Assembly: GCF_044704955.1 (NCBI RefSeq)
Contig: NC_092007.1
Location: forward strand, 3,720,001-3,784,000
Direction: 5' to 3'
Length of the DNA stretch: 64,000 nt
From: Pristiophorus japonicus
Taxonomy: Eukaryota
Below the pieces are notes generated by a model. The model searched no databases, had not been told where the DNA came from, and saw only the letters and a program-made list of their open reading frames with translations. The position numbers and the translations under genes were made by a program. Every line of letters begins with the position of its first letter. Positions within the stretch are counted from its first letter, which is position 1. Positions 1,839-31,660 of this stretch are shown piece by piece.

Positions 1839-2189
1839 TGTTAGATCTCTTAATTTTCAATGAAATACGAACTCCGATTGTAGTTTTAATGTAACTTTAT
1901 TTTGGCAGCAGCAACAAGCTTCTGGCTTTAAGCCAGGCCTTTGTCCTTCTGAGACCACATGGTCAAAATGGCTATACTTATACCTGGTGCAATTTACAGA
2001 AAAGAACTCACCTTCTTTGACCTTATTGTCTCAATTAATAGCCTTTTAACCTTTTAATTGGCTCGCTACCCAAGGTCCTTAAATGTCAAGTTGATTGATG
2101 ACTTAATGCAATGTGCTCAGTCGCACGTAAACATGGGAGTCTGTGTTTTCTCAACCTGTCTAAATGCAGCCTGTTTGAATTCTCTATCA
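1839..2189 (-). repeat. 3' LTR of ERV
   Basis: About 13 mismatches to 7478-7828 by manual alignment; minus-strand TATAA-like and AATAAA motifs. Confidence 0.95.
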
Positions 2190-2209
2190 ATCCATCCTTT
2201 GATTCTTTC
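2190..2209 (-). promoter_or_regulatory. Polypurine tract
   Basis: Purine-rich GAAAGAATCAAAGGATGGAT immediately before the 3' LTR on the minus strand. Confidence 0.6.
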
Positions 2210-2552
2210 ACAAACTGAATATAAAACATCAGGTATCACTGGTTAAACATTCTGCAAAATAATTCCATTTATGTTAATAGAGTTTCCTTCAAAAATTTGT
2301 TGATGTGTTTTGCCACATGTCCGGACCAGTAGATTCCACACAAATTTACACCAACCAGAGTTCCATCGTGGCCATAATGCAAGTCTGGTTTTAGTAGGTT
2401 AATTAACTTTATTCCAATTTAATCCAAATCAATATCTTAATTCAACCAGTAAACAACCTTCCCTTAAGCATAACATACCCCTGTGCCACGTACAGACGGT
2501 CTGCTGGGACCTGCAAGATGTCTCACCTGCGGGGCAGCAGATACAGCCACCT

Positions 2553-5500
2553 GGTCGTTGACCTAATGCTACATAGCACCATTGGTAGTGCCTGGGGCCA
2601 TGGTGTTCCTTCTTGGTGATATTTGGCAAGCCGTTGTTTCAGAGTTCAATTCATTCACTCTACTTGTCCTGATGATTGTGGATGATAAGGACAGTGTAAA
2701 TCCCACGTAATGTTCAGTAACCTACAGACTTCTTTGCAGACAGCACCTGTGAAGTGTGTTCCCTGATCTGAGTCAATGCTACTCGGGACTTCCCATCGGG
2801 GAATGTAATCCTTACACAAGACCTTTGCAGTGTGATTGGCTGTGGCTCTTTTAGTTGGGACAGCTTCTACCCATCTAGAGAATCTGTTGACCATGACAAG
2901 AATGTTAGTGTATCCTTGGCATGAGGGAAGAGATATATAATCAACCTGCAGGTGCTGGAATGGTCCGACAGGGGCAGGGGGCCTCAGCTGGGGCATTACC
3001 GTGATGGGTCCAGAATTATTTTTCTGGCAGACCACACAGCGGTCTGCTACCAGCTGGGCGTGTTTTTTAAATCCCCGACCTAACCAGCTTTTCTGGAACC
3101 GTGCCATCATCTGTTGTGAGGCCAAGTGTCCCCACGAGTGGATCTGTTGGGCTAAAAAAGGCATAAGCGCTTATGGCGCGACTGGCTTGTCGGTAACTCT
3201 TTGTCTCCAGACACCATCTTCGCATAGCTTAATTCCTGCCTCAATCTATGTCCATTTTTCCTCTCGGGAGCACTCACCTTGCATTGTTTGAAGGTCTCGT
3301 GTCAGAGTCCTGAGTGCTTTCAATCTGTACATCTGTGTTGGTTCTTCTGGGGGAACGCCCTGTGAGGCGGCATCTTTAGCTGCCTGGTCGGCTAGGGCAT
3401 TTCCCTGTGCTTCCATGGTATTTTCCTTGGTATGGGCCTTACACTTCAGGATGGACACTTCCTGAGGTAATTGTATGGCCTCTAGTAAGTCTCGGACTTC
3501 TTTTCCATTTCGGATACGTGTACCAGCAGCAGTGAGGAATCCTATTTTCTGCCATAACAGACCAAAGTCGTGAGCGACTCCAAAAGCATAACGCAAATCT
3601 GTGTACACATTAGCTGTCTGTCCTTCTGCTATTCAACATGCTTCTGACAGGGCCCGTAACTCGGCCTGTTGTGCTGACGTTCCTGAGGGTAAACATCCTT
3701 TTGCCACTAAGGTTGTAACTGCCCATCTTGCTTTTCTAGTACCATTGTCAATAAAGGAGGAACCATCTGTAAACAGGATGAGGTCTGGGTTGTGCAGAGG
3801 CTCCTCTGCTGCTAAGGCTGCTTCTTCTGTTTCTTTTAAAATCTCCACGCAGTCATGCTCTTCACATTCTCCCCCCTCTTGCTCCCTCAATTCTGACATC
3901 GGGAGCATAGTTGCGGGATTAACTGGGCTGGCCCGGACGATATGGAGATTAGGAGCTTCCAAAACTGCTGTCCAGCGGGTCCATCTAGCTGCCGTCACCT
4001 GAGACATTCTTTTCAAAGACAGCAAAGCATGTACGGTGTGGGGACACTAGACAATCAGCTTTTGGTCGAGGACTAGACCCGCAGTGATCATTACCGCTCG
4101 ACATGTAGCTTCCATGGCCCTTAGGCAACTTTCCCATCCGAGGGCTACCGCATCCAGTTTTGCCGAATAATAGCCAATAGGTCTTTGCCGATCACCATGT
4201 TCTTGTGTCAGTATAGCTTTCATATATCCTTCTTTCTCATGAACAAACAGGGTAAATGGTTTACCACTGTCGGGGATTCCCAGAGCCGGTGCCGAACACA
4301 AAGCCTTTTTCAAACTCAGGAAGGCCTCTTGCTGTTCTTTAGTGAGGGTGATGGCTTCTTTAGAGGCACGTTTCCCTTTAAAATATCATTCAGTGGCTGA
4401 GCAAGCTGTGTGAAGGAGTCAATCCAATTTCTGTTAAAGTTACACAATCCCAAAAAAGACCTTAGTTCCTGAATAGTGGTGGGTTTTTTAGCAGCCCGAA
4501 TGGCTGCAGTTCTATCCTGGGTAAGTTCTCTCTTTCCTTGTGAAGTCTTTAGTCCCAGGTACACAACCTCTTGGGATATTTGTGCTTTGTCGATGCTGGC
4601 TTTATGTCCTTTCAGCCGCAGGTGATCCAGCAAAGCTCGTAAATCTTGTTCATGCTGGTCTTCCGTGTTTGAAGCTAGCAGGATAGCATCTACATATTGG
4701 ATGACTGTGGATGACAGGGGAGGTAATTCTCGCAAATGGCTTTGTAAAGCCATGTGGAATACTGTAGGGCTGTTGTGGAAACCCTGCGGTGACCGGGTCC
4801 AAGTATACTGTTGTCCTTGGACTGTGAAAGCAAACCACTGTCGAACCTCCAGTGCCAGAGGCACCGACCAAAATCCGTTGGCCATATCTATAACCGAGAA
4901 ATATTTATGTTCCGGTTTGAGGGCATTAAAAATGGTGGAGGGATCTGCGACCAAAGGAGCTTTTTGATCAATACACTGATTAGCTTTCCTATAATCGACA
5001 GTCAAACGCCAAGTCTCATTAGATTTCTGTACCGGCCACACGGGGCTATTGGAGGAGCTATGCGTTTTAATAAGCACCCCTTGTTTCTCCAATTGCTGAA
5101 TAACCGGTAAGATTCCCGCGATGGCAGTTGGACTGATGGGATACTGTTTAGTGCATGGAGGCTTGGTCCCTGTAAATGATGCAGGCTCCATCTGGAGTCG
5201 GCCACAATCGTTCTTATCTTTAGCCCATATCGGGTGTTCCTTCAATTCTTCTTTCTTCAAAGTTCTAATTGACCATGTCACCTGACCATCCTCAAAATGC
5301 AACGATGAATCTACTTGGATTAGAACGTCCATGCCCAAATGGGGTTGATCTACTGGGCCTATCCAGACTGGCGTGGTTAGTTTATGTGGACCCAGCCCTA
5401 TAAGTACCGGTGTTGTCCTTTTAATTTCCATTTTATGGCCCCCAACTCCATAGGCTGTACGTGCCCTACCATCCAACGGTAAAATGTCTCCATATTGTAG

Positions 5501-5640
5501 AGGTAAGCATGTTAATTCCGCCCCGTGTCTAAAAGACAGTCCACATCCTTATCGCCCACCCTCACAGTTATATATAGCCCGTCTCCCCTTTGTTGTTTTA
5601 GTGCGAGGAGGGGGGCCAGTGTGGGCTCTAATCGTTTTTT
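2553..5640 (-). pseudogene. pol: Retroviral pro-pol (protease, RT, RNase H, integrase), disrupted
   Basis: PR LLDTG; RT IDMANGFWSVPL, PQGFHNSP, YVDA (mutated YVDD); RH FTDGSS...SAQQAEL; IN HHCC, LQVDY, SDQGTHF, HPQSSGQVE. Split by several stops and frameshifts. Confidence 0.93.
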
Positions 5641-7190
5641 GCTATCCCAAGTAACTCCTTCTGTTGTTGTATTGTCAGTCGCTTAAATGCTTCTATGAGG
5701 TCATTATCTTGTGACAAGCCTGGTTTGTTGGCTGAATTGTATCCCTGGCTGCGTCCTCTTCCCCGGCCACGACCTTGCTGTTTTGCCCTGCACGTCTTGG
5801 CCCAGTGACCTTCTTTCCCACAATAATGAAATTTTCCGGGTAATTTTCCAAATGTCTGTTTATCGGAATCCTGGGATTTCCATCCCACAGCCTGCAGGGC
5901 TCGGACTTTAGCTCCCATATCCCGATCTAATTGGTTACAATGAACCACCAATGCTGCAAAGGTAGTTCCTCTACCTTCCCAGTCCGGTAACACTACCTTC
6001 AGCATTTTGGACAGTTCTGGCATTAGACCTGCTACGAAAGCTGCTTTCAGGGGTCCAAACACTTGTTCATCCATTTCCTCATCCGTATTATTCATACCCG
6101 AATGTTCTAGCCACGCGCATCTAAACCGCTCGCCATACTCCAGGACCTCCTCTGTTCCTTTCTTTTGGCAGCCTGCAATTTTTCCCCAGTCTGTCTTAGC
6201 TGGACTGAAGGTTTGCAGCCAGTGTTTAATCGCCTCCCACCCTGCGTTTAATTCTTGCTCATCCTTCCCCAAAGCTTCTTCTACCTTGTCGTACAATTTT
6301 CTTCCCTGTGTTTTTGGCACCATTATGGTCAAAATTTGCACTCCGTCCCAGGGATGAAGTTGATATATATTTCTTAAGCGGTTCAATTGGTCCCACGTTT
6401 TTGCTCCCCCTTTCTTTGGATTGGGCAACTCCTTGGACCATTTATCAATTTTCTCTGGGTCTGCCGGATCATGAACTAAGTATTCTGCATACACCCTTCT
6501 CTTTGTTTTTTTGGTTCCGCCCTCATCCGCAGTCTCTTCTGATTTGACTACAATTCCTCTTTTTAAAAATGGGGCAAAGTGCACCCCTAATTCTTCATCC
6601 TCCGACCCTGTATTGTCGGAGGATTCAGAATCCGTATCTATTCCTCGGTCGTGTCTTCGGGTTTGCGCTTTTAATTTATCCAAACATGGGTACCCTGGGA
6701 ATTGACCGATACATTTTCCTTTTCCTATTACTGTCTCTTGACCTAATGATTTTTTCCATTCTTTAATTTCACCTTTAAGATCTTTAACTCCCGCTTCCAG
6801 CTTTTCAAGTTCAAGCTTTTTCTGTCGCAGCTGCGCACAAACAGCTTGCAATTGATCCTTTGCACTGGTCAGTTCTTGATCATTTTGGGAACACATTATA
6901 ATTTCATTCCGCTTTTGGATCTTTCCCATAATGGCTAGGGACCATCTCGTTCGCTCTTTATTTTTCATATGGGTCGTTTTTCCCCAGACCCTTTTAATCT
7001 CGTCCAAGGACCATTGTCCTTTGGAGGTTCCGTACTTTTGTTCGATCTTATTACAGGTTTTAGATAAGTTGAATTGTTGCTCTATGTATTCTTTCAACTG
7101 TTGGAGGATTTCATCTATCGAAACCTCAGGTGGTGCCTGTCCACCTTTAACCGTTGTAGGCAATTCTTTGCTCTTATCTCCTGCTGCCAT
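5628..7190 (-). CDS. gag: Retroviral Gag, open 520-aa ORF
   Basis: Follows the PBS/leader; coiled-coil region, MHR-like CQKKGTEEVLEYGERF, zinc knuckle (F)HYCGKEGHWAKTC, RG-rich tail. Confidence 0.9.
   Translation of the reverse strand: MAAGDKSKELPTTVKGGQAPPEVSIDEILQQLKEYIEQQFNLSKTCNKIEQKYGTSKGQWSLDEIKRVWGKTTHMKNKERTRWSLAIMGKIQKRNEIIMCSQNDQELTSAKDQLQAVCAQLRQKKLELEKLEAGVKDLKGEIKEWKKSLGQETVIGKGKCIGQFPGYPCLDKLKAQTRRHDRGIDTDSESSDNTGSEDEELGVHFAPFLKRGIVVKSEETADEGGTKKTKRRVYAEYLVHDPADPEKIDKWSKELPNPKKGGAKTWDQLNRLRNIYQLHPWDGVQILTIMVPKTQGRKLYDKVEEALGKDEQELNAGWEAIKHWLQTFSPAKTDWGKIAGCQKKGTEEVLEYGERFRCAWLEHSGMNNTDEEMDEQVFGPLKAAFVAGLMPELSKMLKVVLPDWEGRGTTFAALVVHCNQLDRDMGAKVRALQAVGWKSQDSDKQTFGKLPGKFHYCGKEGHWAKTCRAKQQGRGRGRGRSQGYNSANKPGLSQDNDLIEAFKRLTIQQQKELLGIAKND
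5634..5640 (-). promoter_or_regulatory. -1 ribosomal frameshift heptamer A AAA AAC at the gag-pro junction
   Basis: Gag ends GCA AAA AAC GAT TAG. The -1 frame reads RLEPTLAPLLALKQQRGDGLYITVRVGDKDVDCLLDTG; the read-through frame hits TAA after 9 codons. Confidence 0.85.
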
Positions 7191-7455
7191 AATACTGATT
7201 TCTTTACTGGGGTCTCGAGTCGTAGGCTTTCCAGCCGATCAGTAGGTTGGTGATTAATTAACTAACACACCGCCGAACTTAGACGTCTATGGGACCTCGA
7301 GCCGACTACCAACCGGAGGGTTCGCAAACTGGAGGCTTTCGGAATCGCGTAGAAGGCGAGGCAAATTTAGACTTTTGACCGAGGACTTTTATAAAGAGGA
7401 GTCCTTACCTCAGTATGTAGGTCCGATGTCCAAAATTCAGTTTCTTCCCTTAGCG

Positions 7456-7473
7456 ATCGTGTTCATGACGCCA
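7456..7473 (-). promoter_or_regulatory. Primer binding site, best match tRNA-Ser(CGA)
   Basis: TGGCGTCATGAACACGAT, 4 nt after the 5' LTR; 16/18 match to the complement of the vertebrate tRNA-Ser(CGA) 3' end as recalled (TGGCGTCACGAACAGGAT). Confidence 0.75.
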
Positions 7474-7477
7474 AAAT

Positions 7478-7828
7478 TGTTAGATCTTTTAATTTCCACT
7501 GAAATACAAACTCTGATTGTAGTTTTAATGTAACTTTATTTTGGCAGCAGCAACAAGCTTCTGGCTTTAAGCCAGGCCTTTGTCCTTCTGAGACCACATG
7601 GTCAAAATGGCTGTACGTATACCTGGTGCAATTTACAGAAAAGAACTTGCCTTCTTTGACCTTATTGGCTCAATTAATAGTCTTTTAACCTTTTAATTGG
7701 CTCACTACCCAAGGTCCTAAAATGTCAAGTTGATTGATGACTTAATGCAATGTGCTCAGTCGCACGTAAACATGGGAGTCTGTGTTTTCTCAACCTGTCT
7801 AAATGCAGCCTGTTTGAATTCTCTATCA
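7478..7828 (-). repeat. 5' LTR of ERV
   Basis: Direct repeat of 1839-2189, followed on the minus strand by the PBS. Confidence 0.95.
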
Positions 7829-8026: not shown

Positions 8027-8326
8027 ATACGCTTCCAAAGCCCACGATGTCTGTGGACCCACCCTCGGTTGTAGTGACGGTAGGGGAGGGGATTCAGATT
8101 ACCTGCATCACCAGCTACCCAGCCCACAGGTTCCACTTGTACAAAGAAGGTCACAGCGATATTATTGACACACGGCATGTCACAGGCTCCGAGGGGTCAG
8201 TCACATTCCCCATCACAGACCTCGAGCCCACGGATGGAGAAGCCTACATATGTGTCTTTGAGAAAACGGTGAAAGAGAGAGTATATATCGCACCCCTCAG
8301 TGACCCGGTGCAGGTAACTGTGACAG
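8027..8326 (+). CDS. Ig C2-type domain exon of an LRC-like (LILR/GPVI/CHIR-like) receptor
   Basis: ttccag acceptor, 300-bp phase-1/phase-1 exon, gtgggt donor. DTLPKPTMSVDPPSVVVTVGEGIQITC...FHLYKEG...FPI...AYIC...SDPVQVTVTG. Confidence 0.88.
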
Positions 8327-8454
8327 GTGGGTGACATGTCGTTACCGGACTTCGTTCCTTGTTACCCCGGCAACAAAGGGTTCTTGGTCCTGTCACAATA
8401 ACTTCCATGTGACTCGTGCCTCGGTGGTTATTCAACAGCAAGCTTCAACATCCA

Positions 8455-9140
8455 TGTCAACCGTGGCTCAGTGGGCAGCACCCTCGGCTCTGGGTCAGCA
8501 GGTTGTAGGTTCAGGTCCCACTCCAGGGACTTGAGCACATAAATCTAGGAGGGGCAGTACTGAGGGAGTGCCGCATTGTCACAGGGGCAGTACTGAGGGT
8601 GTGCTGTACTGTCACAGCGGCAGTAGAGGGAGTGCTGTACTGTCACGGGCAGTACTGAGGGAGTGCCGCAATGTCAGAGGGGCAGTACTGAGGGAGTGCC
8701 GCAATGTCGAGGGGCAGGACTGAGGGAGTGCCACACTGTCGAAGGGGCAGTACTGAACGAGTGCCGCATTGTCACAGGGGCAGTACTGAGGGAGTGCTGT
8801 ACTGTCACAGGGGCAGTACTGAGGGAGTGCTGTACAGTCGGAGGGGCAATATTGAGGGAGCGCCGCACTGTCAGAGGAGCAGTACTGAGGGAGCACTGCA
8901 CTGTGGGAGGGGCAGTACTGAGGGAACGCCGCACTGTGGGAGGGGCAGTATTAGGGAGCGCCACAATGTCGGAGGGGTAGTACTGAGGAAACGCCGCACT
9001 GTGGGAGGGGCAGTGCTCCCTCAGTACTGCACTGGGAGTGTCAACCTAGATTTATGTGCTCAAGTCTCTGGAGTGGGACTTGAACCCACAACCTTCTGAC
9101 TCAGAGGTGAGTGTGCTACCCACTGAGCCACGGCTGACAC
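8455..9140. repeat. Two inverted SacSINE1-like tRNA heads flanking a ~33-bp minisatellite
   Basis: Head at 8455-8550 (+) is the reverse complement of about 9045-9140; about 13 copies of GGGGCAGTACTGAGGGAGTGCCGCACTGTCaga lie between them. Confidence 0.85.
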
Positions 9141-9239
9141 CATATTCTGAAGAAATTCAAACCGATGTTTAACTGTATATCTGGGGCTTGCTAGCATATC
9201 CAACCCAAGAATGATAATGTGCTGCTTGTAAAGATTGCG

Positions 9240-12208
9240 GAAAGTGTTAAATGTTGGTGTTGGGAGAAATTGACGTGTCCTCGTACAGGAAACACAGGGA
9301 GTTAGTGGCAGGAACAGCCAGCAATTAGGGAGGCAAATGGCATGTTTGCCTTTATTGTAAGTGGAATGAAGTCGAAGAGTAAAGGGGGCCGAAATTCAGC
9401 CTCCCGAAAAGGCCCCTTACCGGGGGAGTGGAGCGGCCATGGATTTGCAGCCGATTGACAGCCGCCAGCCAAATTCACCGCGGGGGGATTTTCCGGCGGT
9501 CCCCACTTCTGCCGACCATCCTAAATGTGTCATCAATGGGCGCACCGCCGATCTCCGTATCTCCGGCCGAATTCACCTGTGACATTCTCCGTCCGGCCGT
9601 GCGGTGCCCCCGACAGCTTTGTGAGGAAGGATATACCTGCCTTGGAAGTGGTGCAACGGAGGTTCACCAGACTGATTCCTGGGATGAGAGGGTTGTCTTA
9701 TGAGGAGTGATTGAGCAGAATGGGCCCATACTCTCCGGAGTTTAGAAGAATGAAACAGAGAAAATAGGTGCAGGAGTAGGCCATTCGGCCCTTCGAGCCT
9801 GCACCGCCATTCAATATGGTCATGGCAGATCAACTTCAGTACCCCACTCCTGCTTTCTCTCCATACCCCTTGATCCCTTTAGCCATAAGGGCCACATCTA
9901 ACTCCCTTTTGAATATGTCCAACGAACTGGACTCAACAACTTTCTGCGGTAGAGAATTCCACAGGTTCACAATTCTCTGGGTGAAAAAGTTTCTCCTCAT
10001 CTCGGCCCTAGATGGCTTACCCCTTATCCTTAGACTGTGACCCTTGGTTCTGGACTTTCCCAACATCGGGAACATTCTTCCTGCATCTAACCTGTCCAGT
10101 CCCGTCATAATTTTATATGTTTCTATGAGATCCCCTCTCATTCTTCTAAACTCCAATAAGCCTAGTCGATCCAGTCTTTCTTCATATGTCAGTCCTGCCA
10201 TTCCGGGAATCAGTCTGGTGAACCTTCGCTGCACTCCCTCAATTGGAAGAATGTCCTTCCTCAGATTAAGAGACCAAACTGAACACAATATTCCAGGTGA
10301 GGTCTCACCAAGGCCCTGTACAACTGCAGTAAGACCTCCCTGCTCCTATACTCAAATCCCCTCGCTATGAAGGCCAGCATGCCATTTGCTTTCTTTACTG
10401 CCTGCTGTACCTGCATGCCGACTTTCAGTGACTGATGTACCATGACACCCAGGTCACGTTGCACCTCCCCTTTTACTCATCTGTCACCATTCAGATAATA
10501 ATCTGCCTTCCTGTTTTTGCCTCTAAAGTGGATAACCTCAAATTTATCCACATTATATTGCATCTGCCATGCATTTGCCCATTCACCTAACCTGTCCAAG
10601 TCAACCTGCAGCTTCCTAGCATCCTCCTCACAGCCCACACTGTCACCCAGCTTAGTGTCATCTGCAAACTTGGAGATATTACATTCAATTCCTTCGTCCA
10701 AATCATTAATGTATATTGTAAATAGCTTGGGTCCCAGCACTGAACCTTGCGGCACCCCACTAGTCACTGCCTGCCATTCTGAAAAGGGCCCTTTTATTCC
10801 CACTCTTTGCTTCCTGTCTGCCAACCAGTTCTCTATCCACGTCAGTACATTACCCCCAATACCATGTGCCTTAATTTTGCACACTAATCTCTTGTGTGGG
10901 ACCTTGTCAAAAGCCTTTTGAAAGTCCAAATACACCACATCCACTGGTTCTCCCTTGTCCACTCTACTAGTTACATCCTCAAAAAACTATAGAAGATTTG
11001 TCAAGCATGATTTCCCTTTCATATATCCATGCTGACTTGGACCGATCCTGTCACTGCTTTCCAAATGCGCTGCTATTACATCTTTAATCAGTGATTCCAA
11101 CATTTTCCCCACCACCAATTCTCTGTTTTCTCTCTTCCCTCCTTTTTTAAAAAGTGGGGTTACATTAACTACCCTCCAATCCATAGGTACTGATCCAGAG
11201 TCCATGGAATTTTGGAAAATGACCACCAATGCATCTATTATTCCTAGGGCCACTTCCTTAAGTACTCTGAGATGCAGACTATCAGCCCCTGGGGATTTAT
11301 CGGCCTTCAGTCCCATTGGTTTCCCTAACACCATTTCCTGACTAATAAGGATTTCCCTCAGTTCCTCCTTCTTGCTAGACCCTCAGTCCCCTAGTATTTT
11401 CGAGAGGTTATTCGTGTCTTCCTCAGGGAAGACAGAACCAAAGTATTTGTTCAATTGTCTGCCATTTCTTTGTTCCCCATTATGAATTCACCTGTTTCTG
11501 ACTGCAAGGGACCTACATTCGTCTTCACTAATCTTTTTCTCTTCACATATCTATAGAAGCTTTTGCAGTCAGTTTTTATGTTCCCTGCAAGCTTACTCAT
11601 AATCTATTTCCCCCCTCCTAATTAAACCCTTAGTCCTCCTCTGCTGAGTTTTAAATTTCTCCCAGTCCTCAGGTTTGCTGCTTTTTCTGGCCAATTTATA
11701 TGCCTCTTCCTTGGATTTAACACTATCACTAATTTCCCTTGTTAGCCACGGTTGAGCCACCTTTCCTGCTTTATTTTTACGCCAGACAGGGATGTACAAT
11801 AGTTGTAATTCATCCATGTGATCTTTAAATGAGAAGAGATCTGATTGAAACATACAAGATTCTGAGGGGGATTGACAGGGTAGATGCTGAGAGGATGTTT
11901 CCCGGGGCTGGAGAGTCTAGAACCAGGGGACACAGTCTCAGGATAAGGAGTCAGCCATTTAGGACTGAGATGAGGAGAATTTTCTTCACTCAGAGGGTGG
12001 TGAATCTTTGGAATTCTCTGCCCCAGTGGGCTGTGGAGGCTCAGGACTGAGATCGATAGATTTTTGGATATTAAAGTAATCGAGGGATATGGGGATCGGG
12101 CGGGAAAGTGGAGTTGAGGTCGAAGATCAGCCGTGATCTCATTGAATGGCGGAGCAGGCTTGAGGGGCTGAATGGCTGACTCCTACTCCTAATTCTTATG
12201 TTCTCTTA
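9240..12208 (+). mobile_element. CR1 3' part, interrupted by a GC-rich insert (about 9385-9615) and an antisense CR1
   Basis: RKDIPALEVVQRRFTRLIPGM... stops at gaagaatga and resumes at 11828 with MRRDLIETYKIL and a TTCTTATG tail. Confidence 0.8.
9754..11827 (-). mobile_element. 5'-truncated CR1 (HER1-like) LINE
   Basis: RT motifs DFQKAFDKV, GVPQGSVLGP, FADDTKL; candidate TSD AATGA (9749-9753 / 11828-11832). Confidence 0.92.
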
Positions 12209-12258
12209 TGTTTTGGGATTTAATATTCAGTCCCGTGTCTGTGCCTGTCCCATTGCAG

Positions 12259-12561
12259 ATACACTCCCAAGGGCCGGTATTTCCATCGATCCGGAATCTG
12301 GTGTGGTGGGCTGAGGGAAGCCCTTTCACATTACCTGCACAAGCCCCGTGCTCCTCCGCTCGGGGGGCCGGTTTGTCTTATACCGAAATGGCACGGAGAA
12401 TCCCACAGAGGCTCAGGATGTGTCTGGATCTGACCACTCGGCCTTCTTCCCCCTCACGGGCAACAACCAGACCCGGAACTACACCTGTGCCTACGGAAGG
12501 ACGGTCAAAGGGAGAGTGTATCTCTCGCCCCGCAGTGTCACGCTGCAGGTAACAGTGACAG
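12259..12561 (+). pseudogene. Second Ig C2-type exon of the LRC-like receptor, with in-frame TGA at 12312-12314
   Basis: ttgcag acceptor, 303 bp phase 1/1, gtgag donor. DTLPRAGISIDPESGVVG*GKPFHITC...FVLYRNG...NYTCAY...SPRSVTLQVTVTG. Confidence 0.85.
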
Positions 12562-12585
12562 GTGAGCCCCACTTCATGCATTGAT

Positions 12586-14116
12586 GGGAAAGGACAGGAT
12601 TACAGAGTGAGTGTGTACACATGGGGGAAGGTTAGAGAGGATTACAGAGTGAGTGTGTACACGTGGGGGGAAGGTTAGAGAGGATTACAGAGTGAGTGTG
12701 TACACGTGGGGGGAAGGTTAGACAGGATTACAGAGTGAGTGTGTACACGTGAGGGGAAGATTAGAGAGGATTACAGAGTGAGTGTGTACACGTGGGGGGA
12801 AGGTTAGAGAGGATTACAGAGTGAGTGTGTACACGTGAGGGGAAGGTTAGACAGGATTACAGAGTGAATGTGTACACGTGAGGGGAAGGTTAGACAGGAT
12901 TACAGAGTGAGTGTGTACACGTGACGGGAAGGTTAGACAGGATTACAGAGTGAGTGTATACACGTGAGGGGAAGGTTAGACAGGATTACAGAGTGAGTGT
13001 ATACACATGAGGGGAAGGTTAGAGAGGATTACAGAGTGAGTGTGTACACGTGGGGGGAAGGTTTGACAGGATTACAGAGTGAGTGTGTACACATGAGGGG
13101 AAGGGTAGAGAGGATTACAGAGTGAGTGTGTACACGTGAGGGGAAGATTAGACAGGATTACAGAGTGAATGTATACACGTGAGGGGAAGGTTAGACAGGA
13201 TTACAGAGTGAGTGTATACACGTGAGGGAAAGGTTAGAGAGGATTACAGAGTGAGTGTGTACACGTGGGGGGAAGGTTAGACAGGATTATAGAGTGCGTG
13301 TGTACATGTGGGGGAAAGGTGAGACAGGATTACACTGTGAGTGTGTACTCGTGGGGGAAAGGTTAGACAGGATTACAGAGTGAGTGTGTACATGTGGGGG
13401 GAAGATTAGACAGGATTACAGAGTGAGTGTGTATACGTGAGGGGAAGTTTAGACAGGATTACACAGTGAGTGTGTATACGTGAGGGAAAGGTTAGAGAGG
13501 ATTACAGAGTGAGTGTGTACACGTGAGGGGAAGTTTAGACAGGATTATACAATGAGTGTGTACACGTGGGGGAAAGGTTAGGCAAGATTACAGAGTGAGT
13601 GTGTACACATGGGGGAAAGGTGAGACAGGATTACAGAGTGAGTGTGTACACATGGGGGGAAGGTTAGACAGGATGACAGAGTGAGTGTGTACACGTGGGG
13701 GGAAGGTTAGAGACGACTACAGAATGAGTGTGTACACGTGGGGGGAAGGTTAGAGAGGATTACACAGTGAGTGTGTACACGTGAGGGGAAGGTTAGACAG
13801 GATTACGCAGTGAGTGTGTACACGTGGGGGGAAGGTTGGAGAGGATTACAGAGTGAGTGTGTACATGTGGGGGGAAGGTTAGACAGGATTACACTGTGAG
13901 TGTGTACATGTGGGGGAAAGATTAGACAGGATTACAGAGTGAGTGTGTACACGTGGGGGGAAGGTTAGAGAGGATTACACAGTGAGTGTGTACACGTGAG
14001 AGGAAGGTTAGAGAGGATTACAGAGTGAGTGTGTACACGTGGGGGGAAGGTTAGACAAGATTACAGAGTGAGTGTGTACACGTGGGGGAAAGGTTAAACA
14101 GGATTACAGAGTGAGC
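12586..14116. repeat. 43-bp minisatellite, about 35 copies
   Basis: Unit GTGTACACGTGGGGGGAAGGTTAGAGAGGATTACAGAGTGAGT. Confidence 0.97.
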
Positions 14117-14186
14117 CAATCATTGTATCTGCCGTGAGGTGCAGGAATATTACCCATCAACGTTCTCTCTTTCTATAACCCTCTAG

Positions 14187-14392
14187 GAACTTACACACCT
14201 TCAGTTTTAATCCCAATCTGCGTGTGTCTCACCGCATGTGTCCTGTTAGCTACTCTGATTATCCTGGGGATCGAGTGCAGAGCTGTAAAGACCAAGAAAG
14301 GTCATGCCGGTACGATTCCGGAGTTGCTGAACCTCCGCAATTGTTCCTCTGGGAATAAAGTCAGAAGGGAAGTGATGTTGCTTTTGCCATAG
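14187..14392 (+). CDS. Transmembrane exon of the LRC-like receptor (3' end uncertain)
   Basis: Pyrimidine tract + ctctag acceptor; phase 1 gives GTYTPSVLIPICVCLTACVLLATLIILGIECRAVKTKK..., stop at 14390-14392 if unspliced. Confidence 0.7.
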
Positions 14393-14659
14393 TGCTGTAA
14401 ATATGTATTTGTTTTCTCATTATAAAGTATGGACACTCTAACTAAAGGCTGACCCAGTGTCGAGAATCAGAGTGCGTACAATGTTCCCCTTCACCATATA
14501 ACGCCGAAATCCGGCATATTATTCCCTCACTGATCCTCAGTGCAAGGGAGGGGGCAGTAAAGGCAGCAAAGGGGGGAGGCTTGAGGGGGAACCTCACAAA
14601 ACATGACCCAGTGGTGAATAACGACAGCATGAAACACCGTCAGATCGGACAATCCCAAA

Positions 14660-15860: not shown

Positions 15861-18800
15861 AGCGGCAGTATTATACCACTAGAACCCCTCAATGGTGGTC
15901 TCTGGACCTGCCGCAGGCACCTTATCACGTGACCCTAGCATACGATCTCAGTGGAAAGAATCAGGACCTGCAGAACTTTTATCAGGATCACGAAGGGGAA
16001 GTGAAGGAAATTCTATTAAGGGCTAGAGTGACTGGACCAGAATGGAAGGCAGATTTTGTGGAAATGGATAAGAATCTGTGGAGACAGCAACCAACAGTGG
16101 CACCACATATTACTCGTGAAGTATTATCTCCCCACCACACTAAAGATTTAGGAGTTATGGTGTGCCAGGCTATAGACGAGGCTGACCCTACCAGCAGGGA
16201 TTTGCAGATTGTAAAACATGACCGAACAGTCCAATTCCACGGGGACCCCGAGAATGTCTTAACGACTCTGCAGCATCATACTGGCACTGACATACCTGAC
16301 TATGTGGATCCTCATGTGTGGGCAGAGGACCCCTCCCAAGTGGGTTATACTCCCATTGATCCGATTGAGATCCCAGTGCAGGGCAATGTGGACTGGCCCT
16401 CTATCCGACAGTACCTACTGAAACCATAGGCAATACCAAGTATCCACCAACTGATTAAGGGGCTAGTGGAACAGGGGATTTTGGTCCAATGCCAGTCCCC
16501 GTGTAATACTCCTATACTGGCAGTCCCGAAGCCAGGCAAGCCAAATGAATACTGTTTAGTTCAAGACCTTCGAGCTATCAATGCTATCGTCCAGCCCCTA
16601 CACGCTCTGGTTCCCAACCCAGCACAGATACTGTCATTAATCCCAGCAAACGCCAAGATCTTCGCTATAATAGACCTTCAACATGCCTTCTTCACTTTGC
16701 CACTAGCCCAGGCAAGTCAGTACCTATTCGCCTTCACTTACCAGGGACAGCAATATACCTGGACTAGACTTCCCCAAGGGTTCATCCACTCCCCGACCTT
16801 ATTCTCAAGGTGCCTGCAGAAACAGTTACAGTCCCTCACGCTGACTAAGGGATGCACTTTGATTCAGTATGTGGACGATTTACTGGTTGCCAGCGCAGAT
16901 GAACCAAGTAATCAGGAGAATGCTAATCAGTTACTGAATTACTTGTCCTCCCTGGGATACATAGTTTCCCCATCAAAGGTCAAAATTGGCCAGTCTCAAG
17001 TCAAGTTCCTTGGGATAATTCTATCAGGCACCCACCGAGCTTTGGAGGCTAGCCGAGTCGAACCAATTTGCCAGTTTCCAGTCCCTAGCACAGCTAAACA
17101 AATGCGGCAGTGGTTGGGGATGATCAATTACTGCAGATCCTGGATCCCTAATGTTGCCCTGATGACTAAGCACCTCACACCGTATACAAATAAGGAAGGC
17201 AGCTTTGAAATAAAAGCCGCAGATGTCCAAGCCTTTAAGGAACTAAAGACAGCCCTGCTGCAAGCTCCGGCTTTGGGCCGGCTTCTCTATGACCGGCCCT
17301 TTCAATTGTATTGTACAATCCTCAGAAACACGGGGATAAGCATAGGCCTGTTGCCTACTACTCTTCCAAAATAGACCCCGTTGCCTTGGGGCACCCTGTA
17401 TGTACTCAAATATTAACCGCCATCTACAATAGCCTCCAATCAGCTGCCAACATTACCCTCCAGCAGGATATTGTTGTGTACACCTCTCACTCCGTTGCTG
17501 CCCTCCTGAGCCAACTGCCGACTCAACACCTTACCATGGCCAGACAAAGCAGATATGAGATCTACTTACTAAATAATCCAAAGCTGACCTTTCGGCACTG
17601 TACTGCCATTAATCCGGCCTGTTTTCTTACTGAGCCACCCCAAGATGAGGAAGAACCCAGTCATGGTTGTTTATCTTTAATTCAAGAGGCCTCATCGGTC
17701 AGGGAAGATTTAGTTGATGTACCAATGGATGACCCAGACTGTATTATGTATGTTGACGGAAGTTTTTCTATTAATCGAGAAGGTACACGAATCTCAGGAT
17801 ACGCCATAGTAAACCAGGAGAATCAGGTCTTGGAATCTGCCGCCTTTGAAACCGCCTATTCTGCCCAACAAGCTGAACTATTCACCCTCACCCGAGCCTG
17901 TATCTTGGCCAAAGACCTCAAAGTCAATATCTATACCGACTCTAGGTATGCCTTTGGGGTAGCCCATGATTTTGGACAATTATGGAAAAATAGGGGATTC
18001 CTAACCTCACAGGGGAATGAGATATCCCATATGCAACTAGTATCTGATTTGTTGCAAGCCCTCATGCTCCCCAAGCACATTGCCATTGTTAAATGTACCG
18101 CCCAAACCACCGGAAAATCCCCGGTTGATATAGGGAACCACTGTGCTGACAAAGAGGCTAAACAGGCCTCTCGTGAACATCATATGTTAGTGCCCAGAAT
18201 GATGAGTCAGACTAAAATTCCTGCGAAGGATAAGTTAGCCTCGGAAAAACCAATGCCAACCATCCAAGATGTCATTAAAGCACAGGAGGATGCTCCTGAA
18301 AAAGAAAAACTGTTGTGGAGAAATTATGGATGTACTTATGACAATGTTTCTAAACTCTGGACCACTCCCGCGGAACAGACTTGCTTGTCTGACGAGTTGG
18401 CTCTATGGGTTATTGAATGTATGCATTTTGCTACTCATTGTGGAGCAAGAACCATGAGTGACACACTTTTGGCTACTTGGTGGCACCCTAGACTCCAGGC
18501 GCTCGCCCAGAACATCAGTAGTCGTTGCCTGGTTTGCCAGCAACATAATCCAGGGAAGGGAGTCCCCTGTGATTGGGGTAAAACGCCCTTACCCGAAGGT
18601 CCCTTTGAGACATTGCAATTGGACTATATTGAGTTGCAAAGAATTCAGTGTTACAAATATGTGTTAGTAATAGTAGATATATTTAGCAAATGGATTGAAG
18701 CCTACCCTACCCTGGACAATAAGGCTCAAACTGTTGTTAAGGTGTTAATGAGGGAAATTGTTCCTAGATATGGAATCCCAGCTCGACTGAGTTCTGATAA

Positions 18801-19391
18801 TGGCCCTCACTTTATTGGCCAAGTTAACAAACAATTCTTTTCCCAGATGCGCATTAATCAGCAGCTGCATTGTGCCTACCGACCCCAAGCTGCGGGACTG
18901 GTTGAACGTGCTCATCAAACTCTTAAAACCAAGCTTGCAAAACTGGTAGCATCAACCGGACTCAATTGGCTCAAACTCCTTCCCATAGCCCTATTCCAGA
19001 TTCGAACCACTCCGACCAGCACGGCTAGATTGACACCTGCTGAGGTCATTTATGGTAGGCCCCTTAGGACCCCCTGGAATCAGAATGTCCCCTCCACTGT
19101 CCAATTTCACCACATGACTGAGGAAATGACCACCTATGTTCTTTCTCTGACACAAGCTCTGCGACTAGCTCACAACCAGGTTCGAGAGGCTCACCTCGAC
19201 TCCCAGTTTTACCCGAATCGTCTCTCGTGGTACCAGGGAAGTATGTCCTGATTAAGAAATGGATTCGGAAGGGATTAGAGCCACGATGGGAGGGGCCTTT
19301 TCAGGTGTTACTCACTACCCCCACTACAGCCAATGTTGAGGGGAAAAGTGCCTGGGTTCACCTGCACCACTGCAAGCTCACCACCCTCTAA
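15861..19391 (+). pseudogene. pol: Epsilon-like (class I) ERV pol: 2H-phosphoesterase-like domain, RT, RNase H, integrase
   Basis: IDLQHAFF, LPQGFIHSP, QYVDDLL; YVDGS, SAQQAEL, YTDSRYAFG; LQLDY, SDNGPHF, PQAAGLVER; GPF domain WEGPFQVLLTTPT. Stop at 16427 and frameshifts near 17320 and 19210. Confidence 0.93.
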
Positions 19392-21205: not shown

Positions 21206-22656
21206 GAATAGTCCACGTAATTGTTCCATTATTTTGTTGCTGAGGGCTAATGGGCCATCAGGCATTATTAGCCAGCTAGATTGTATTACTTTTAAGTTAT
21301 AATTAAAATTGGTTCATTGTAACTCTTTCATGGTATCTATTGCATGTGATTGGTCTAGGGAGATCTGTATCTAGAAAATTACTCAGTTAGGCTAACTTGC
21401 GGAAAGCATTACGGGCGAAGGCATTGAGGATGGCTGCGATCACTGTGAAACAAAATAGCTGGAAGATACATCAATGAGTTCTATGAGTAAACAGTCCAGA
21501 AAGCAGATATGGAGAATAGGAACTGTAATCACACAGGACAGATAAGGTCAGAACAGGTGAAGAAACACAGCAGGTGAGGGAGCAGGTACAATGCAGGTCA
21601 GCTGTGCTTGTTTTCTAATTGTATAAATTTATGATTTTTATTACACGTAGATGCCCTGTGCTGCAAACAGCAACAACTTGTATTTATATAGCGCCTTTAA
21701 TGTAGTGAAACATGAGTATTATGAGATAAAAAAATTTGACACCCAGCCACATAAGTAGAAATTGCACAGACCTAAACCTATTCAACACCTCGCTCTGTGC
21801 ACTCAGCCAATGGTATTGAGGCTGCAGGCAGTGCTACTGCCAACTGCTGCTGTTCACTGAACTATGGCTGCAAGTTTTCCCTTGAATCGCTTAACGCAGG
21901 ACCGCTGAGTTTTGCATATTATGGTAGAGATAAGCACCCTGAATGCTAATCAAGAGGTTCTAAAACACGGCCTGAATTCGTGGTCCCTGCGAGTGTATAC
22001 GAAGTGTGCATGTCCCTGTAGGGGCCCCACAAGCTCTAGGTTTAGATATCCGAATTGCATTCGCCTAGACCTGGAATTTGCAATTTGTCAAGAATCCTCC
22101 AAACAGATCACACGCATCCGGAGGTAAGACGTAAGGCCTGCTTTTATCAGCGTGAGACTTTAAAAGTACAGAAAAATATATATTTATTAAATAATGTAAA
22201 CATTTTAAATGAGACAAGTTTATTTTTGGAAGCTTTAAAGTAGGTAAATTTATTTTTCCAAAAATTATTATTTTTTAAAAATTAATTAAATTCATTTTTA
22301 TTCATTTGACATATCTGATGGTTTAAAAAAAATATTTTTAGTGTTTGTTTTTTGGGGGTAATCCCATTCATAGTTATGATGATTCCGTATGTACAGAACT
22401 CACCCTAAGTATGAATGGAGATTCGCTAATTTGCTCGGTTAGATACGCTACTTGGATAGGTGGGCATTTAGGCAGGCCTTCGCATAGAGGGTCAGGACCA
22501 CGAATCTCTCAACATCCCGGACCACCAGATGCTTTCGTAGAGATTTTTGAGGTCGGAGGCCTCGACCCGAAAATTTCTGGGCCAGAATAGTGTCCCGACG
22601 TTCCCCATTTCAAAAGACACGGGCTTCGATATTGGGATGTCGATCGCGGTTAGTCA

Positions 22657-23558
22657 CTATTTAAACAATTGGACAACCCGTGTCAGCGGATATTTCAACA
22701 CATTTTTCACCTCCTCTCTGAACATACGTTGAGTCGCCGCATAGATGCATGTGTTTGTGCAACAACTTAGGAGCAGGAGCATGTACCCGGCTTCCTGCAG
22801 GATGTAGACAGGGTCGTCATAACCGGTGTAGGCATAGGTATTTGTGACCCGATAATACACAAAATGCACGATAAACGTCATCCACAAGAGAATGAAACTG
22901 CCGGAAATGGTGAAGAGTAAAATTATGGATTTCCTTCGGTTCTCCAACTCCGGGTCCTTGGGATTTTCCCGGTTGTTTTTGTGACGGAGAGCTTTGCGTG
23001 ATCTGTTGGCCACGACAATGCATCTTACAGTCAGGGCATTGAGCAGCAGGATCAGAAAGAATGGGAGGAATGGGGTAGCAATACAATTAAAGGAAGAATA
23101 TATTATCCACAAAGGTGCGGTATAAAAGATGGATTTCGTGTGGCAATACCAAGGCACCTCGCCAATTACGTATAGGGGTTCAAATTTGAAATACCAGGGT
23201 ATGTTTTGCAAACAGCCGAGAATAAACACCATCCCCACCACTGCGGTTGCCAGTTCCTTTGTGCAGTATTTCCTCTTCAGCTTCTGGCAGCAGATGGCGA
23301 GGAACCGATCAAAGGTGAACGCAACCGTCAGCCAGACGGAAATGTCCCTGCTCGCGTAAATGAGGACGATTTTCAGGCTGCATATCGGGGTGGTCGACAT
23401 GTAGCTGCCTGGGAAGTAGATGCCGACGATGCGATTTAGAACCACGCCGGTGATAATGACCAGTAGATCTGCCACAGCCATGCCCACCAGGTAGCGAGTG
23501 ATGCATTCGGAGAGGCCGCACTTTCCACGGGACAGGGCCACAATCGCCACCAGGTTTG
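22657..23558 (-). CDS. GPR139/GPR142-like class A GPCR, gene 1, exon 2
   Basis: ttttcag acceptor; TM2 MAVADLL, TM3 FTFDRF, TM7 NTCIY; 902 bp. Confidence 0.92.
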
Positions 23559-23639
23559 CTGAAAATAAACAGGTTAAAATAAAAGGGAACTGACCCATCT
23601 ATTCTTGACATAAAATTCACGTCTTTAGCATATATTTGC

Positions 23640-24545
23640 CTGGATCGACCTTCCCTCCATCATAATGTCAGAAGTGGGGATGTTTGCTGAAGAGTGCACA
23701 GTGTTCAGTTCCATTCGCAACTCCACAGATAATGAAGAATGCAGCAAGACCTGGACGACATTCAGGCTTAGGCTAATAAGCGGCAAATAACATTCGCGCC
23801 ACACAAGTGCCAGTCAATGACTATCTCCAACAAGCGAGAGTCTAACCAATGCCCCTCGACATTCAACGGTATTGCCATCACCAAATCTCCCACCATCAAT
23901 ATCCTGGGGGTCACCATTGGCCAGAAACTTAACTGGACTAGCCAGATAAATACTGTGGTGAAAAGAGGAGGTCAGAGGCTGGGTATTCTGTGACGAGTCT
24001 CTGACCGCCTGACTCCCCAAAGCCTTTCCACCATCGACAAGGCACAAGTCAGGAGTGTGATGGGATACTCTCCACTTGCCTGGATGAGTGCAGCTCCAAC
24101 AACACTCAAGAAGCTAAAAACAAATCAGGGCAAAACAGCCCTCTTGATTGCCTCCCCATCCACCACTTTAAAGATTAACTCCCTCCATCGAGTCTTCAGT
24201 CTGTACCATCTACAAGATGCAGTGCAGCAACTCGCCAAGGCTTCTTCGGCAGCATGTCCCAAACCCACAACCTCGACCACCTTGAAGGACAAGGGCAGCA
24301 GGTGAATGCAAACACCACAACCTCCCTGTTCCCCTCCGAGTCACACACCATCCTGATTTTGAAATATATCACTGTTGCAACATTCAAAGTCCCGGAACTC
24401 CCCCCATAACAGCAGTGTAGCACCTTCACCACATGGACTGCAGCAGTTCAAGAACACGGCTCACCACCACCTTCTCAATGGGCAATTAGGGATGGGCAAT
24501 AAAAGCTGGCCTAGCCAGTGATGCCCACATCCCAGGAACAAACAA
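23640..24545 (+). mobile_element. CR1/L2-group LINE 3' fragment (paralogous pieces at 37565-38470 and 57050-57505)
   Basis: Degenerate FADD, YKAQVRSVMEYSPLAW; tail gcaattagggatgggcaataaa. Confidence 0.75.
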
Positions 24546-24949
24546 AAAAAATCTATGACAATCTAGTTGATCTTGCCCAGAATTTTTTTAAATTTCAAAA
24601 TATACTTTATTCATATAAAAATTTGAACAGTATATTCAAAAGCAGTTCAGTACATTTAACAGCGAGAATAATGGCCAATTAGTTGATATTCACATCACAT
24701 TAATTAATTCTATGTTGATTCCATTTGTGAAAACTGCAATACCGCACCCCTGTGGAGGAGCAGGGTATCTCTGACAGTAACTTTGAGGATTTACGAGGTT
24801 AGCTGCGCATCTGCTGATGATAGGTGCTGCTGTCAGTTTTACACAGTGTTAACGGTGAGCAAATTCGTGGCCACTTTTTGAATGGTTTTGCAGAATCAAT
24901 CACATTTCGGAAAGCGGGAGAAGTTGAAAAGTGGACAATGGGAAGTAAG

Positions 24950-25570
24950 ACATGTATTTATATAGCGCAATTCACGACCACCGGACATATAAAAACACTT
25001 TACAGCCAATGAAATACATTTGAATTGTAGTCACCGTTGTAAAGTGGCAGCCAATGTATGCATAGAAAGCTCCCATCAATGTGATAATAACTGTTTTTGG
25101 TATATTGATTGAGGGATAAATATTGACCCAGGACACCAGAGATATCTCCATTCCTCTTCTTCAAAATAATGCCATGGGATCTATTATGTCCACCTGATAG
25201 AGCACACAGGAGCTCGGTTTTTGGTTTCATCAGAAAGACGGCACATCTGGCAGTGCAGCAGTTCCTGAGTACTGTCTCTCCGACATTACCGTGCTCTCTC
25301 AGTACTGACCCTCCGAAATGCAGCACTCCCTCAGTACCGCCCCTCCGACAGTGCAGCGCTCCCTCAGTACTGCCCCTCTAACAGTGCAGTGCTTCCTCAG
25401 TGCTGCCCCTCTGACAGTGTGGCACTCCCTCAGTACTGCCCCTCTGACAGTGTGGTGCTCCCTCAGTACAGTCCCTCCGACAGTGCGGCGCTCCCTCAGT
25501 ACTGCCACTCCTACTCGAACCCACAACCTACTGATTCAGAGGGTAGTGTTTTACCCACAGAGCCACAGCT
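24950..25570 (-). mobile_element. SacSINE1/DeuSINE-like SINE with internal 33-bp tandem expansion (duplicate at 40270-40900)
   Basis: tRNA-like head, CAGTACTGAGGGAG repeats, Deu-like body, gcgctatataaat tail. Confidence 0.75.
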
Positions 25571-25992
25571 GAGTTGCTTGGAGCTGAATGCCTTGCGTGC
25601 ACTCGATACAATTGCACATATGCTTCTGAGAGACAACTCACAGCTATGTCTTCCACTCTGTCCAACTCGCTGCAACTCATGGAATCTTCAAACAAAGCAA
25701 TAGTGAATACAGTTTTGTGAGCATTCCCACTGCTTGGTGCCGAACCTTGTTTCATGGTTTAGAATAATTAGGATTATTGCTTACATTGGAAAAAAAAATA
25801 AGTTTCTAAAATCTAAACATGTTAAATAAGTTAAATAAATTCAGCATGATTTGTGCACTGGACTGCACTATTGAATCGTGAACTCTCTCAGAAGTAAGGC
25901 TAGGCAGTGGCTCAAACACCAGATATGCAGTAAGTGCAATCAATCATTTAATCATTGTTTTGCATAATTAATATGAGACTGCAATGACTTAC

Positions 25993-26062
25993 CAGGAATA
26001 CCGACAGCAGCGAGAACCGGGTAGTAAATAGCATACAGCAGACCACTTACAGGTTCATGCAT
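25993..26062 (-). CDS. GPCR gene 1, exon 1
   Basis: MHEPVSGLLYAIYYPVLAAVGIP + G|gtaagt; 70 bp, splices in frame to exon 2 to give 323 aa. Confidence 0.9.
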
Positions 26063-30490: not shown

Positions 30491-30959
30491 TTTCAGGAGA
30501 GTTGGGTACCTGGTTGTTTAGTTTTTTTGATATTCAGTGGCATTTGCATGCATCCTTTGATGTACCATGATTTATTGTTAATACGCATGGAATGTACTGA
30601 TCAAAGGGAATAGCTAGTATGTCTCATGTCTAAGCAGTTAGCATACACTGGTCTTTTGAACTGTGTGCCCCAGTAGATCTCAAACTGGTTTTGTGCAGTA
30701 TGAAGTTTCAATAAAGACCTGATCCTGCATTACTACAACTGGGTGCCTGTATAACCTGATGTTTAAAGCAACTAAATGGAAAAGATCAAGAAAAAGGAAA
30801 GTCCCACAGAATTCAGTAATCATGACCTGTGACTCCTCCTGATGTTATCGACACGGGTGGATATTGACTCACAAGATGAGTCACCAACACTTTGTTGCTG
30901 AATGCTGATCAGGTTTAATGCATATCGAATGCTACTTAGCATCAATGGTAACAACAAAA

Positions 30960-31660
30960 CAACAATTTGTATTTAGATAGCACCGTTAACATAGTGAACC
31001 ATTCCAAGGCACGTCACAGGAGTATTGTAAGATAACATTTTGACACTGAGCCACGTAAGGAGAAATCAAGGCAGATGACCAAAAGCTTGGTTGAAGAGGT
31101 AGGTTTTAAGGAACGTCTTAAAGGAGCGATAGGTAGAAAATGGAAAGGTTTTAGGCATGGGTTCCAGAACTTAGGACCGAGGCAGCAGAAGGCACGGCCA
31201 CCAATCGTTGAGCATTTATAATCAGGGATGTTTAAGAAGCCATAATTAGAGGAGCACGGATATCTCATGGGTTTCTGTGGCTGGAAGAGATTACAAAGAT
31301 AGGGCGGGGCGAGGAGGACATGGAGGGATTTGAAACCAAGTATGATAATTTTGGAATCGAAACGTTGCTAAACCGGCAGCCAACATAGGTCAGCGAGCAC
31401 AGGGGGTGATGGGTGAATGAGACTTGGTGCCAGTTTGACACGGGCAGCCGAGTATTGAATGACATCAAGTTTACATAGGGTAGAATGTGGTGGGGCGCGG
31501 CCAAGTGTGCATTAGAATAGTCAAGTCCAGAGGTAACAAGGATGAGGGTTTCAGCAGCGGATGAACTGAGGCAGGGGCGGAAACGAGCAATGTTATAGAG
31601 GTGGAACTAGGGGATCGTAGTGATCGCATGGAGATGTGGTCAGTAGCTCATTGCAGGGCA
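30960..31660 (-). mobile_element. L2-type LINE 3' fragment (duplicate at 46380-47080)
   Basis: LADLYWLPVKQ...FKSLH...PPYLCNLLQ; GGRAF.CLGPK.WN. Confidence 0.75.

Follow-up and report, generated by a model that had tools for sequence, protein, structure and literature searches.

A probable broken activating gene from a shark family of paired receptors, likely counterpart of the tetrapod leukocyte receptor complex receptors

Exon anatomy and lesions of the gene

A 64,000-nucleotide stretch of the genome of the shark Pristiophorus japonicus (GCF_044704955.1, NC_092007.1, positions 3,720,001 to 3,784,000; C33:3720001–3784000, on a contig of 13.6 Mb in a genome of 5.9 Gb), referred to in the following as the window, carries the 3' half of a gene for a cell-surface receptor with three immunoglobulin (Ig) domains of the type found in the leukocyte receptor complex (LRC). 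D1 lies outside the window, and D2 and D3 lie inside. An earlier note, made from the sequence alone, had recognized two ≈300-bp phase-1 Ig exons in the window, and both were borne out. The D2 exon (8027–8326, forward strand) is 300 bp long, flanked by AG and GT, phase 1-1 and open, and encodes an LRC-type C2 domain with the signature LPKP...FHLYKEG...SDP for which the note had singled it out. The D3 exon (12259–12561, forward strand) is 303 bp long, phase 1-1, and contains a premature stop. The homology of the second exon to the first, claimed in the same note, was confirmed by sequence search (42% identity, E 9e-12). Within the window, a family profile picked out these two exons alone (E 9e-35 and 1e-27), the next match having an E value of 0.47, and the portion of D3 beyond the stop had OSCAR as its top PDB match (E 0.0028). 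The leader exons, previously left unidentified, were located upstream of the window, where the signal peptide is split across a leader exon with 31 coding bp (C33:3709668–3709698) and a 33-bp mini-exon (C33:3718106–3718138), followed by the D1 exon (C33:3718794–3719093).

The transmembrane exon (14187–14309, forward strand) is of the activating type. It gave the top score among six candidates in positions 12560–64000 of the window and, when compared with shark activating-type helices, reached Z scores of 7–11, with none of 500 shuffles scoring as high in any of four comparisons. It is 49% identical to exons on contigs C36 and C37, where these come after Ig exons. The exon proposed earlier is thus real, but it most likely ends at the donor after 14309 rather than at the TAG at 14392, giving 123 bp, with length and phase equal to those of the related C36 exon. 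No counterpart of it was found in the closest paralogue, on contig C4260, and a chance hydrophobic stretch was considered for that reason; this was ruled out by the likeness to C36 and C37 and by the helix Z scores. The last small cytoplasmic exon of the gene was not found.

The gene carries three kinds of damage. An in-frame TGA in D3 (12312–12314, forward strand) follows 239 codons once leader, D1, D2 and D3 are joined. The paralogue, whose open D3 exon is 87.5% identical, has CGA at this site. DNA contigs of runs X1 and X3, from one sample, carry the TGA with zero mismatches, and it is therefore not an error of sequencing or assembly. In the transmembrane helix, a Cys replaces the Arg of the C36/C37 exon and of three among four named proteins; at this site, six shark helices have Arg four times, His once and Cys once, the last being the window's copy. 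Intact Arg helices are present on C36 and C37 of the same genome. Finally, the D1–D2 intron contains an endogenous retrovirus-like insertion on the reverse strand (1839–7828) with 351-bp long terminal repeats (LTRs; 1839–2189 and 7478–7828) that are 96.3% identical, a gag-like frame (5631–7238) with a zinc-knuckle match (E 0.018), and a 5-bp target duplication flanking the ≈6-kb element; the paralogue has the empty site. Leader, D1, D2 and every Ig-exon splice site are intact.

An intact receptor gene in the window, as the earlier note had it, could not be upheld, and an intact two-domain receptor is ruled out by the stop and the upstream D1. A selection test over the three domains was uninformative (pN 0.051, pS 0.044). 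The assembled allele is probably an activating copy that is dead or dying: it would give a truncated, decay-prone message ending after 239 codons, and a product lacking the Arg would be incompetent for signalling. Birth-and-death turnover is known for activating LRC genes, and the window's copy may be an instance of it.

Other features of the window lie around and beyond these exons. A 1.5-kb tandem repeat (≈12590–14110) occupies most of the intron between D3 and the membrane exon. A second retroviral element (17293–19248, forward strand), with a 652-residue frame containing RNase H and integrase, lies 3 kb past the membrane exon. Two near-identical intronless genes for 313-residue class A G-protein-coupled receptors (22660–23598 and 36585–37523, reverse strand) fall within a segmental duplication (22443–32830 versus 36368–48240) that is 95–96% identical.

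A putatively inhibitory paralogue and the extent of the family

The three domains of the C4260 paralogue are 80–88% identical to those of the window's gene. The paralogue encodes P0002, a protein with three Ig domains, a helix free of charged residues, and a tail in which one canonical immunoreceptor tyrosine-based inhibitory motif (ITIM) is accompanied by a second tyrosine motif. Exon for exon, it matches UniRef proteins of P. japonicus that were automatically named OSCAR, IGSF1-like and LILRA2, and its predicted isoforms omit D3 or the membrane exon. It is unlikely to be a simple allele of the window's gene, since its 3' exons are unmatched across 174 kb of C33. Two exons of the paralogue are duplicated as well (C4260:37659–38034 and 9197–13082): the extra D3 copy lacks its normal donor, and in the extra leader copy the donor is broken; a spare mini-exon occurs upstream in the window's gene as well.

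Contigs of runs X5, X6 and X7 end at the borders of the D2 exon, their loose ends corresponding to the end of D1 (X5 and X6) and the start of D3 (all three). These exon-bounded contigs carry paralogue-type letters, including C at 12312 in X5 and X6. They come from three samples of one study, of a kind and tissue not on record, that differ from the samples with the TGA. Splicing of D1–D2–D3 is thereby shown for paralogue-type sequence only, and it does not follow that the window's allele is silent, because the samples are other ones.

Among 14 shark proteins scanned, seven had a helix followed by an ITIM-like tail and four an activating-type helix (three with Arg and one with His), so that paired activating and ITIM-bearing forms are present in the shark family. 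With a close paralogue that is intact, spliced and ITIM-bearing, the window's gene and the C4260 gene form an activating/inhibitory pair. Among LRC receptors, ITIM-bearing forms inhibit through phosphatases, and Arg-bearing forms activate through an adaptor with an immunoreceptor tyrosine-based activation motif (ITAM), as outlined in the available text of PMC6557307. By analogy, intact members of the shark family would be leukocyte surface receptors. Paired forms, with outer domains that are nearly identical, would share their ligands. The ITIM of the long-tailed form would bring in SHP-type phosphatases; in the short-tailed form, the Arg would serve as the docking site for an ITAM adaptor of the FcR-gamma/CD3-zeta type. 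The sole membrane exon of the zeta/FcR-gamma family that was found (C11:77265267–77265353) looks CD247-like; a search for ITAMs was blank and uninformative.

This genome contains a large number of family members, and four other sharks have them too. An exon search with one domain returned 60 of 150 scored candidates, and 147 of 150 with another; at E ≤ 0.001, the matches fell into at least 51 clusters on 42 contigs. A 19-domain profile matched 27 proteins among 7,997 candidates: 15 from sharks (five species), 10 from tetrapods, one from a teleost and one unnamed. The teleost protein, P0031 (Fundulus diaphanus), combines SRCR with two Ig domains; against the shark profile these reach 54 and 31 bits, and in the tree they join the LRC-like side. 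Entire family clusters recur in near-identical form at C36:3.79–3.84 Mb, at C37:20.52–20.57 Mb and on C438 (three copies), reflecting either recent duplication or assembly redundancy.

Kinship and genomic position of the family

Comparison of the domains with known proteins by profile and structure, one of the checks proposed in the earlier note, placed LRC proteins first. For D2, 58 of the 60 best PDB sequence matches were named LRC proteins; the other two were antibody chains, one of them shown with a LILRB1 insert. All 10 tetrapod proteins matched by the 19-domain profile bear the names LILR, IGSF1-like or DM43-like. When a model of D2 (pLDDT 90.4) was compared with known folds, the top 10 of 50 matches (VIA rows) were LRC domains, with Z scores of 12.3–14.4 and rmsd values of 1.9–2.6 over 91–96 aligned residues, as against 10.6 for Fc-gamma-RI, 10.3 for FCRLA and 9.7 for FCRL5. 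Foldseek likewise put LRC domains at ranks 1–11. Thus, FcR/FCRL domains are not the best matches of the shark family by either sequence or fold. As a control, a separate shark FCRL-type domain at C19:58.2 Mb was searched in the same manner: 21 of its 23 matches were FcR/FCRL chains and none was from the LRC, showing that the genome holds both types and that the search separates them. Exons of FCRL/Fc-gamma-RI type are found at C19:57.9–58.2 Mb (L154 and L190–L196), and the same chromosome has genes of the present family at 48.6–52.4 and 99.4 Mb.

In an 88-row domain tree, with the paralogue's D3 as a stand-in for the broken D3 of the window, D1, D2 and this D3 grouped with tetrapod LRC domains versus the outgroups in 296 of 300 bootstraps when other rows were ignored. 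In a 36-row subset, the grouping of shark and tetrapod LRC domains had support of 86/93, not starred. The trees were run without tetrapod FCRL and LITR rows and without HIDE1, IGSF1, A1BG and TARM1. For the CEACAM, FCRL and CD22 groups, a comparison of one domain from each with PDB served to check the outgroup labels. The tetrapod LRC domains formed a clade of their own (95/70 and 100/98) without a one-to-one shark partner.

A member of the family lies close to genes that mark the LRC. Contig C1860 (0.9 Mb, of which 430 kb were read) carries PRPF31 from ≈706 kb, CNOT3 at 789–799 kb and NDUFA3 at 881 kb, genes that border the LRC in mammals according to the accessible text of PMC6557307. Two family Ig exons on the same contig (C1860:593609–604935, at 593.6 and 604.7 kb) scored 75 and 40 bits against the family profile and grouped with two domain subtypes of the family (100/95 and 90/93). 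Their distance is 101 kb to the first PRPF31 exon that was found, and 184 kb to CNOT3. A profile of the C1860 subfamily matched PirB, FCRL5 and LILRs; its D1 alone had no protein match, LILRA6 being hit only weakly (E 0.44). A second, diverged CNOT3 (C19:99209924–99218605; 66–85% identical per exon alignment) lies 207 kb from two further family exons. The additional C19 stretches, C1860:470001–540000 and C1860:740001–870000 contained no more family exons. No more than 0.43% of the genome is within 250 kb of a family match, and by a rough, post hoc estimate the chance that both CNOT3 copies would fall in this fraction is 2e-5, or 2e-3 if each were tenfold likelier to do so through shared gene-dense regions.

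LRC marker matches are on unplaced scaffolds of 0.16–0.9 Mb, and none is on C33. Tweety, SAC3, BORG and tRNA-endonuclease matches, which likely mark TTYH1, LENG8, CDC42EP5 and TSEN34, were on scaffolds of ≈160 kb, with no family exon reported there. On one of these, C4231 (160 kb), SAC3_GANP, BORG_CEP and tRNA-endonuclease matches occur together, likely representing LENG8–CDC42EP5–TSEN34; endonuclease exons recur on C1733 and C1820. Searches of the genome for RPS9 were blank, and the RPL28 and TMC family matches were not on C33 or C1860. Synteny with LRC flanking genes, a check proposed in the earlier note, was thus seen for a family member, beside PRPF31–CNOT3–NDUFA3; the window's copy lies by none of the markers that could be located. 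C33 does carry many other Ig exons; those tested have CEA and CD22 as their best matches. Around the window, Ig exons of CEACAM-like and CD22/Siglec-like kinds form large arrays over 1.7–5.5 and 11.5–13.6 Mb of this contig. CEACAM and CD22 both map to human 19q13, which gives a loose hint only.

Interpretation and comparison with known systems

We conclude that the window's gene is probably a broken activating copy from a shark family of paired receptors, and that this family is the likely counterpart of the tetrapod LRC receptors (LILR, KIR, OSCAR and CHIR). At the level of the family, the LRC reading is well supported, though not proven, by sequence, fold, pairing and the PRPF31–CNOT3–NDUFA3 linkage. 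The earlier note's assignment to a shark LRC-like family is upheld to this extent, although the trees do not reject FCRL and the helices lack the NxxR motif.

Several observations weigh against this interpretation. A split with all 34 shark rows appeared in only 24 of 300 bootstrap trees, and the tetrapod rows had been picked by likeness to the shark profile. In approximately unbiased (AU) tests, neither the union of the shark family with FCRL (p 0.397) nor that of tetrapod LRC with FCRL (p 0.163) was rejected; the phylogeny thus favors the LRC grouping while an FCRL grouping still stands. PECAM-1, with a Z score of 12.0, tied with the LRC domains at fold ranks 7–10. FCRL5 came 7th and 2nd in profile searches, four shark members carry FCRL5 as an automatic name, and the Atlas margin was only 0.01 (0.96 versus 0.95). 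Asn at position −3 was found in none of six shark helices, so NxxR is absent, and shark and tetrapod activating helices compared at Z scores of 0.3–4.6, overlapping the control (up to 4.9). The mini-exon, at 33 bp, differs in length from that of LRC genes, which is 36 bp. The C1860 gene yielded no membrane exon, the window's own copy has no located LRC marker beside it, and in the genome no FcR-gamma gene was found, the CD247-like exon being the only adaptor exon to turn up. As to the state of the gene, the Ig exons are all phase 1-1, so that skipping of D3 would bypass the stop, and P0003, a predicted isoform of the paralogue, does skip D3.

Other explanations can be given for the same data. 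The family might have radiated in sharks only, from an old C2 domain that gave rise to both the LRC and the Fc-receptor clusters, and be LRC-like in action without being a specific counterpart. The AU tests leave such alternatives standing, the tetrapod LRC clade has no one-to-one shark partner, and family members are spread over 42 contigs, including C19, which also has FCRL-type exons. Charged helices of NxxR type are moreover not specific to the LRC, occurring also in the FCRL and SLAM families of Xenopus (PMC4536121, in the part of the text available). We nevertheless consider this radiation rather improbable, given that the separate shark FCRL-type domain matches FcR/FCRL and no LRC chain, that the fold ranking favors LRC by ≈2–4 Z over FcR chains, and that one member adjoins PRPF31–CNOT3–NDUFA3.

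The two remaining explanations concern the copy in the window. A polymorphic locus, where the assembled allele is broken and another haplotype encodes a working activating receptor, is suggested by contigs of X1, X3 and X5, which carry a second, Arg-bearing version of the membrane exon (window 14014–14500) with 14–17 differences; X3 contains both versions and the assembly has one copy only. This version has, however, lost the AG acceptor at 14185, for which an in-frame CAG 18 bases on might serve, and the X5 contigs of it continue into the intron. We regard a working second haplotype as unlikely, if less so than the radiation, and it would in any case be compatible with the broken state of the assembled allele. 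Less probable than either is a decoy. It would be either a two-domain protein that stops at the TGA and is secreted, or a membrane form that skips D3 and binds ligand but does not signal. LILRA3 and LAIR2 are secreted decoy-like examples. The intact leader, D1, D2 and Ig-exon splice sites are in keeping with a decoy, as are the paralogue isoforms that skip D3 or the membrane exon. Against it, the stop lies ≈250 bases before the next junction, and a stop well before the next exon junction normally triggers decay of the message. The exon-bounded contigs carry paralogue-type letters, though from other samples, the last small cytoplasmic exon was not found, and two CpG-type changes together with the retroviral insertion fit a decaying gene.

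The likeness of the family to mammalian LILR/KIR receptors in sequence and predicted fold, together with the position of one member beside genes that flank the mammalian cluster, makes it likely that LRC-type receptors date from the first jawed vertebrates. More tentatively, and we hold it doubtful as a whole, paired LRC-type receptors and their linkage to CNOT3–PRPF31–NDUFA3 may have been present in the jawed-vertebrate ancestor, the linkage being older than the duplication into two CNOT3 loci. Sharks would then have retained LRC-type genes next to each CNOT3 copy, with one copy sharing its chromosome with FCRL-type genes, the LRC and Fc-receptor clusters would be sisters from one receptor cluster, and the family would since have spread over dozens of shark loci. 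[quoted passage not shown] A 2019 study, in the text available, calls the origin of LRC receptors unclear and leaves sharks unmentioned (PMC6557307), and the accessible part of PMC8302630 assigns the LRC region to a microchromosome of the proto-gnathostome and names no shark receptors. Table IX.6 in the available supplement of PMC3964593 lists one elephant shark gene with 13 paralogues against human OSCAR with seven paralogues. The literature searched, to which most subscription papers did not belong, showed no description of this shark family; its novelty is limited, being narrowed by the automatic LRC names in databases and by the 2014 table of elephant shark OSCAR co-orthologues. If the interpretation is right, a large paired shark family with LRC-type domains and one member beside the mammalian markers would move the origin of the LRC receptors to the first jawed vertebrates and supply candidate receptors for sensing MHC, Ig or collagen on shark natural killer (NK)-like and myeloid cells. 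The window's own copy, a broken member only, would exemplify pairing and the turnover of activating copies.

The closest likeness is to the activating LRC receptors (LILRA, OSCAR, GPVI, Fc-alpha-RI, NCR1 and Xenopus ILR1-4), which share with the shark family C2 exons of ≈300 bp in phase 1, the best sequence and fold matches, a split leader, a short tail and, in the intact shark relatives, an Arg at the start of the helix. The shark genes differ in having no NxxR, a 33-bp mini-exon, no one-to-one orthology in trees and no more than a putative adaptor, and the window's copy in its stop and Cys. A split signal peptide is typical of the LRC (PMC3601082, available text), but is also found in FcR-like genes, where a rule of 30/21-bp leaders holds for a fraction of Xenopus genes only (PMC2413239, available text). 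The FCRL and Fc-gamma-R genes, including Xenopus XFL, resemble the shark family in their C2 domains, split leader, paired forms and the high score of FCRL5; they are set apart by a separate shark FCRL-type domain, by a leader of 31/33 rather than 30/21 bp in the shark gene and by fold Z scores lower by 2–4. HIDE1 (C19orf38), IGSF1, A1BG and TARM1 are approached through weak Pfam Ig_C19orf38 matches and Atlas neighbours at 0.93–0.96; the window's gene differs from them by its three domains and its activating-type helix. In its organization, the family most recalls the paired LILRA/LILRB, PIR-A/PIR-B and chicken CHIR-A/CHIR-B receptors, in which near-identical ectodomains are likewise combined with 3' halves that are unrelated, either activating or ITIM-bearing, and in which copies are numerous, with pseudo-exons and turnover; unlike these, the shark members are scattered over their many clusters and contigs and not gathered in one complex.

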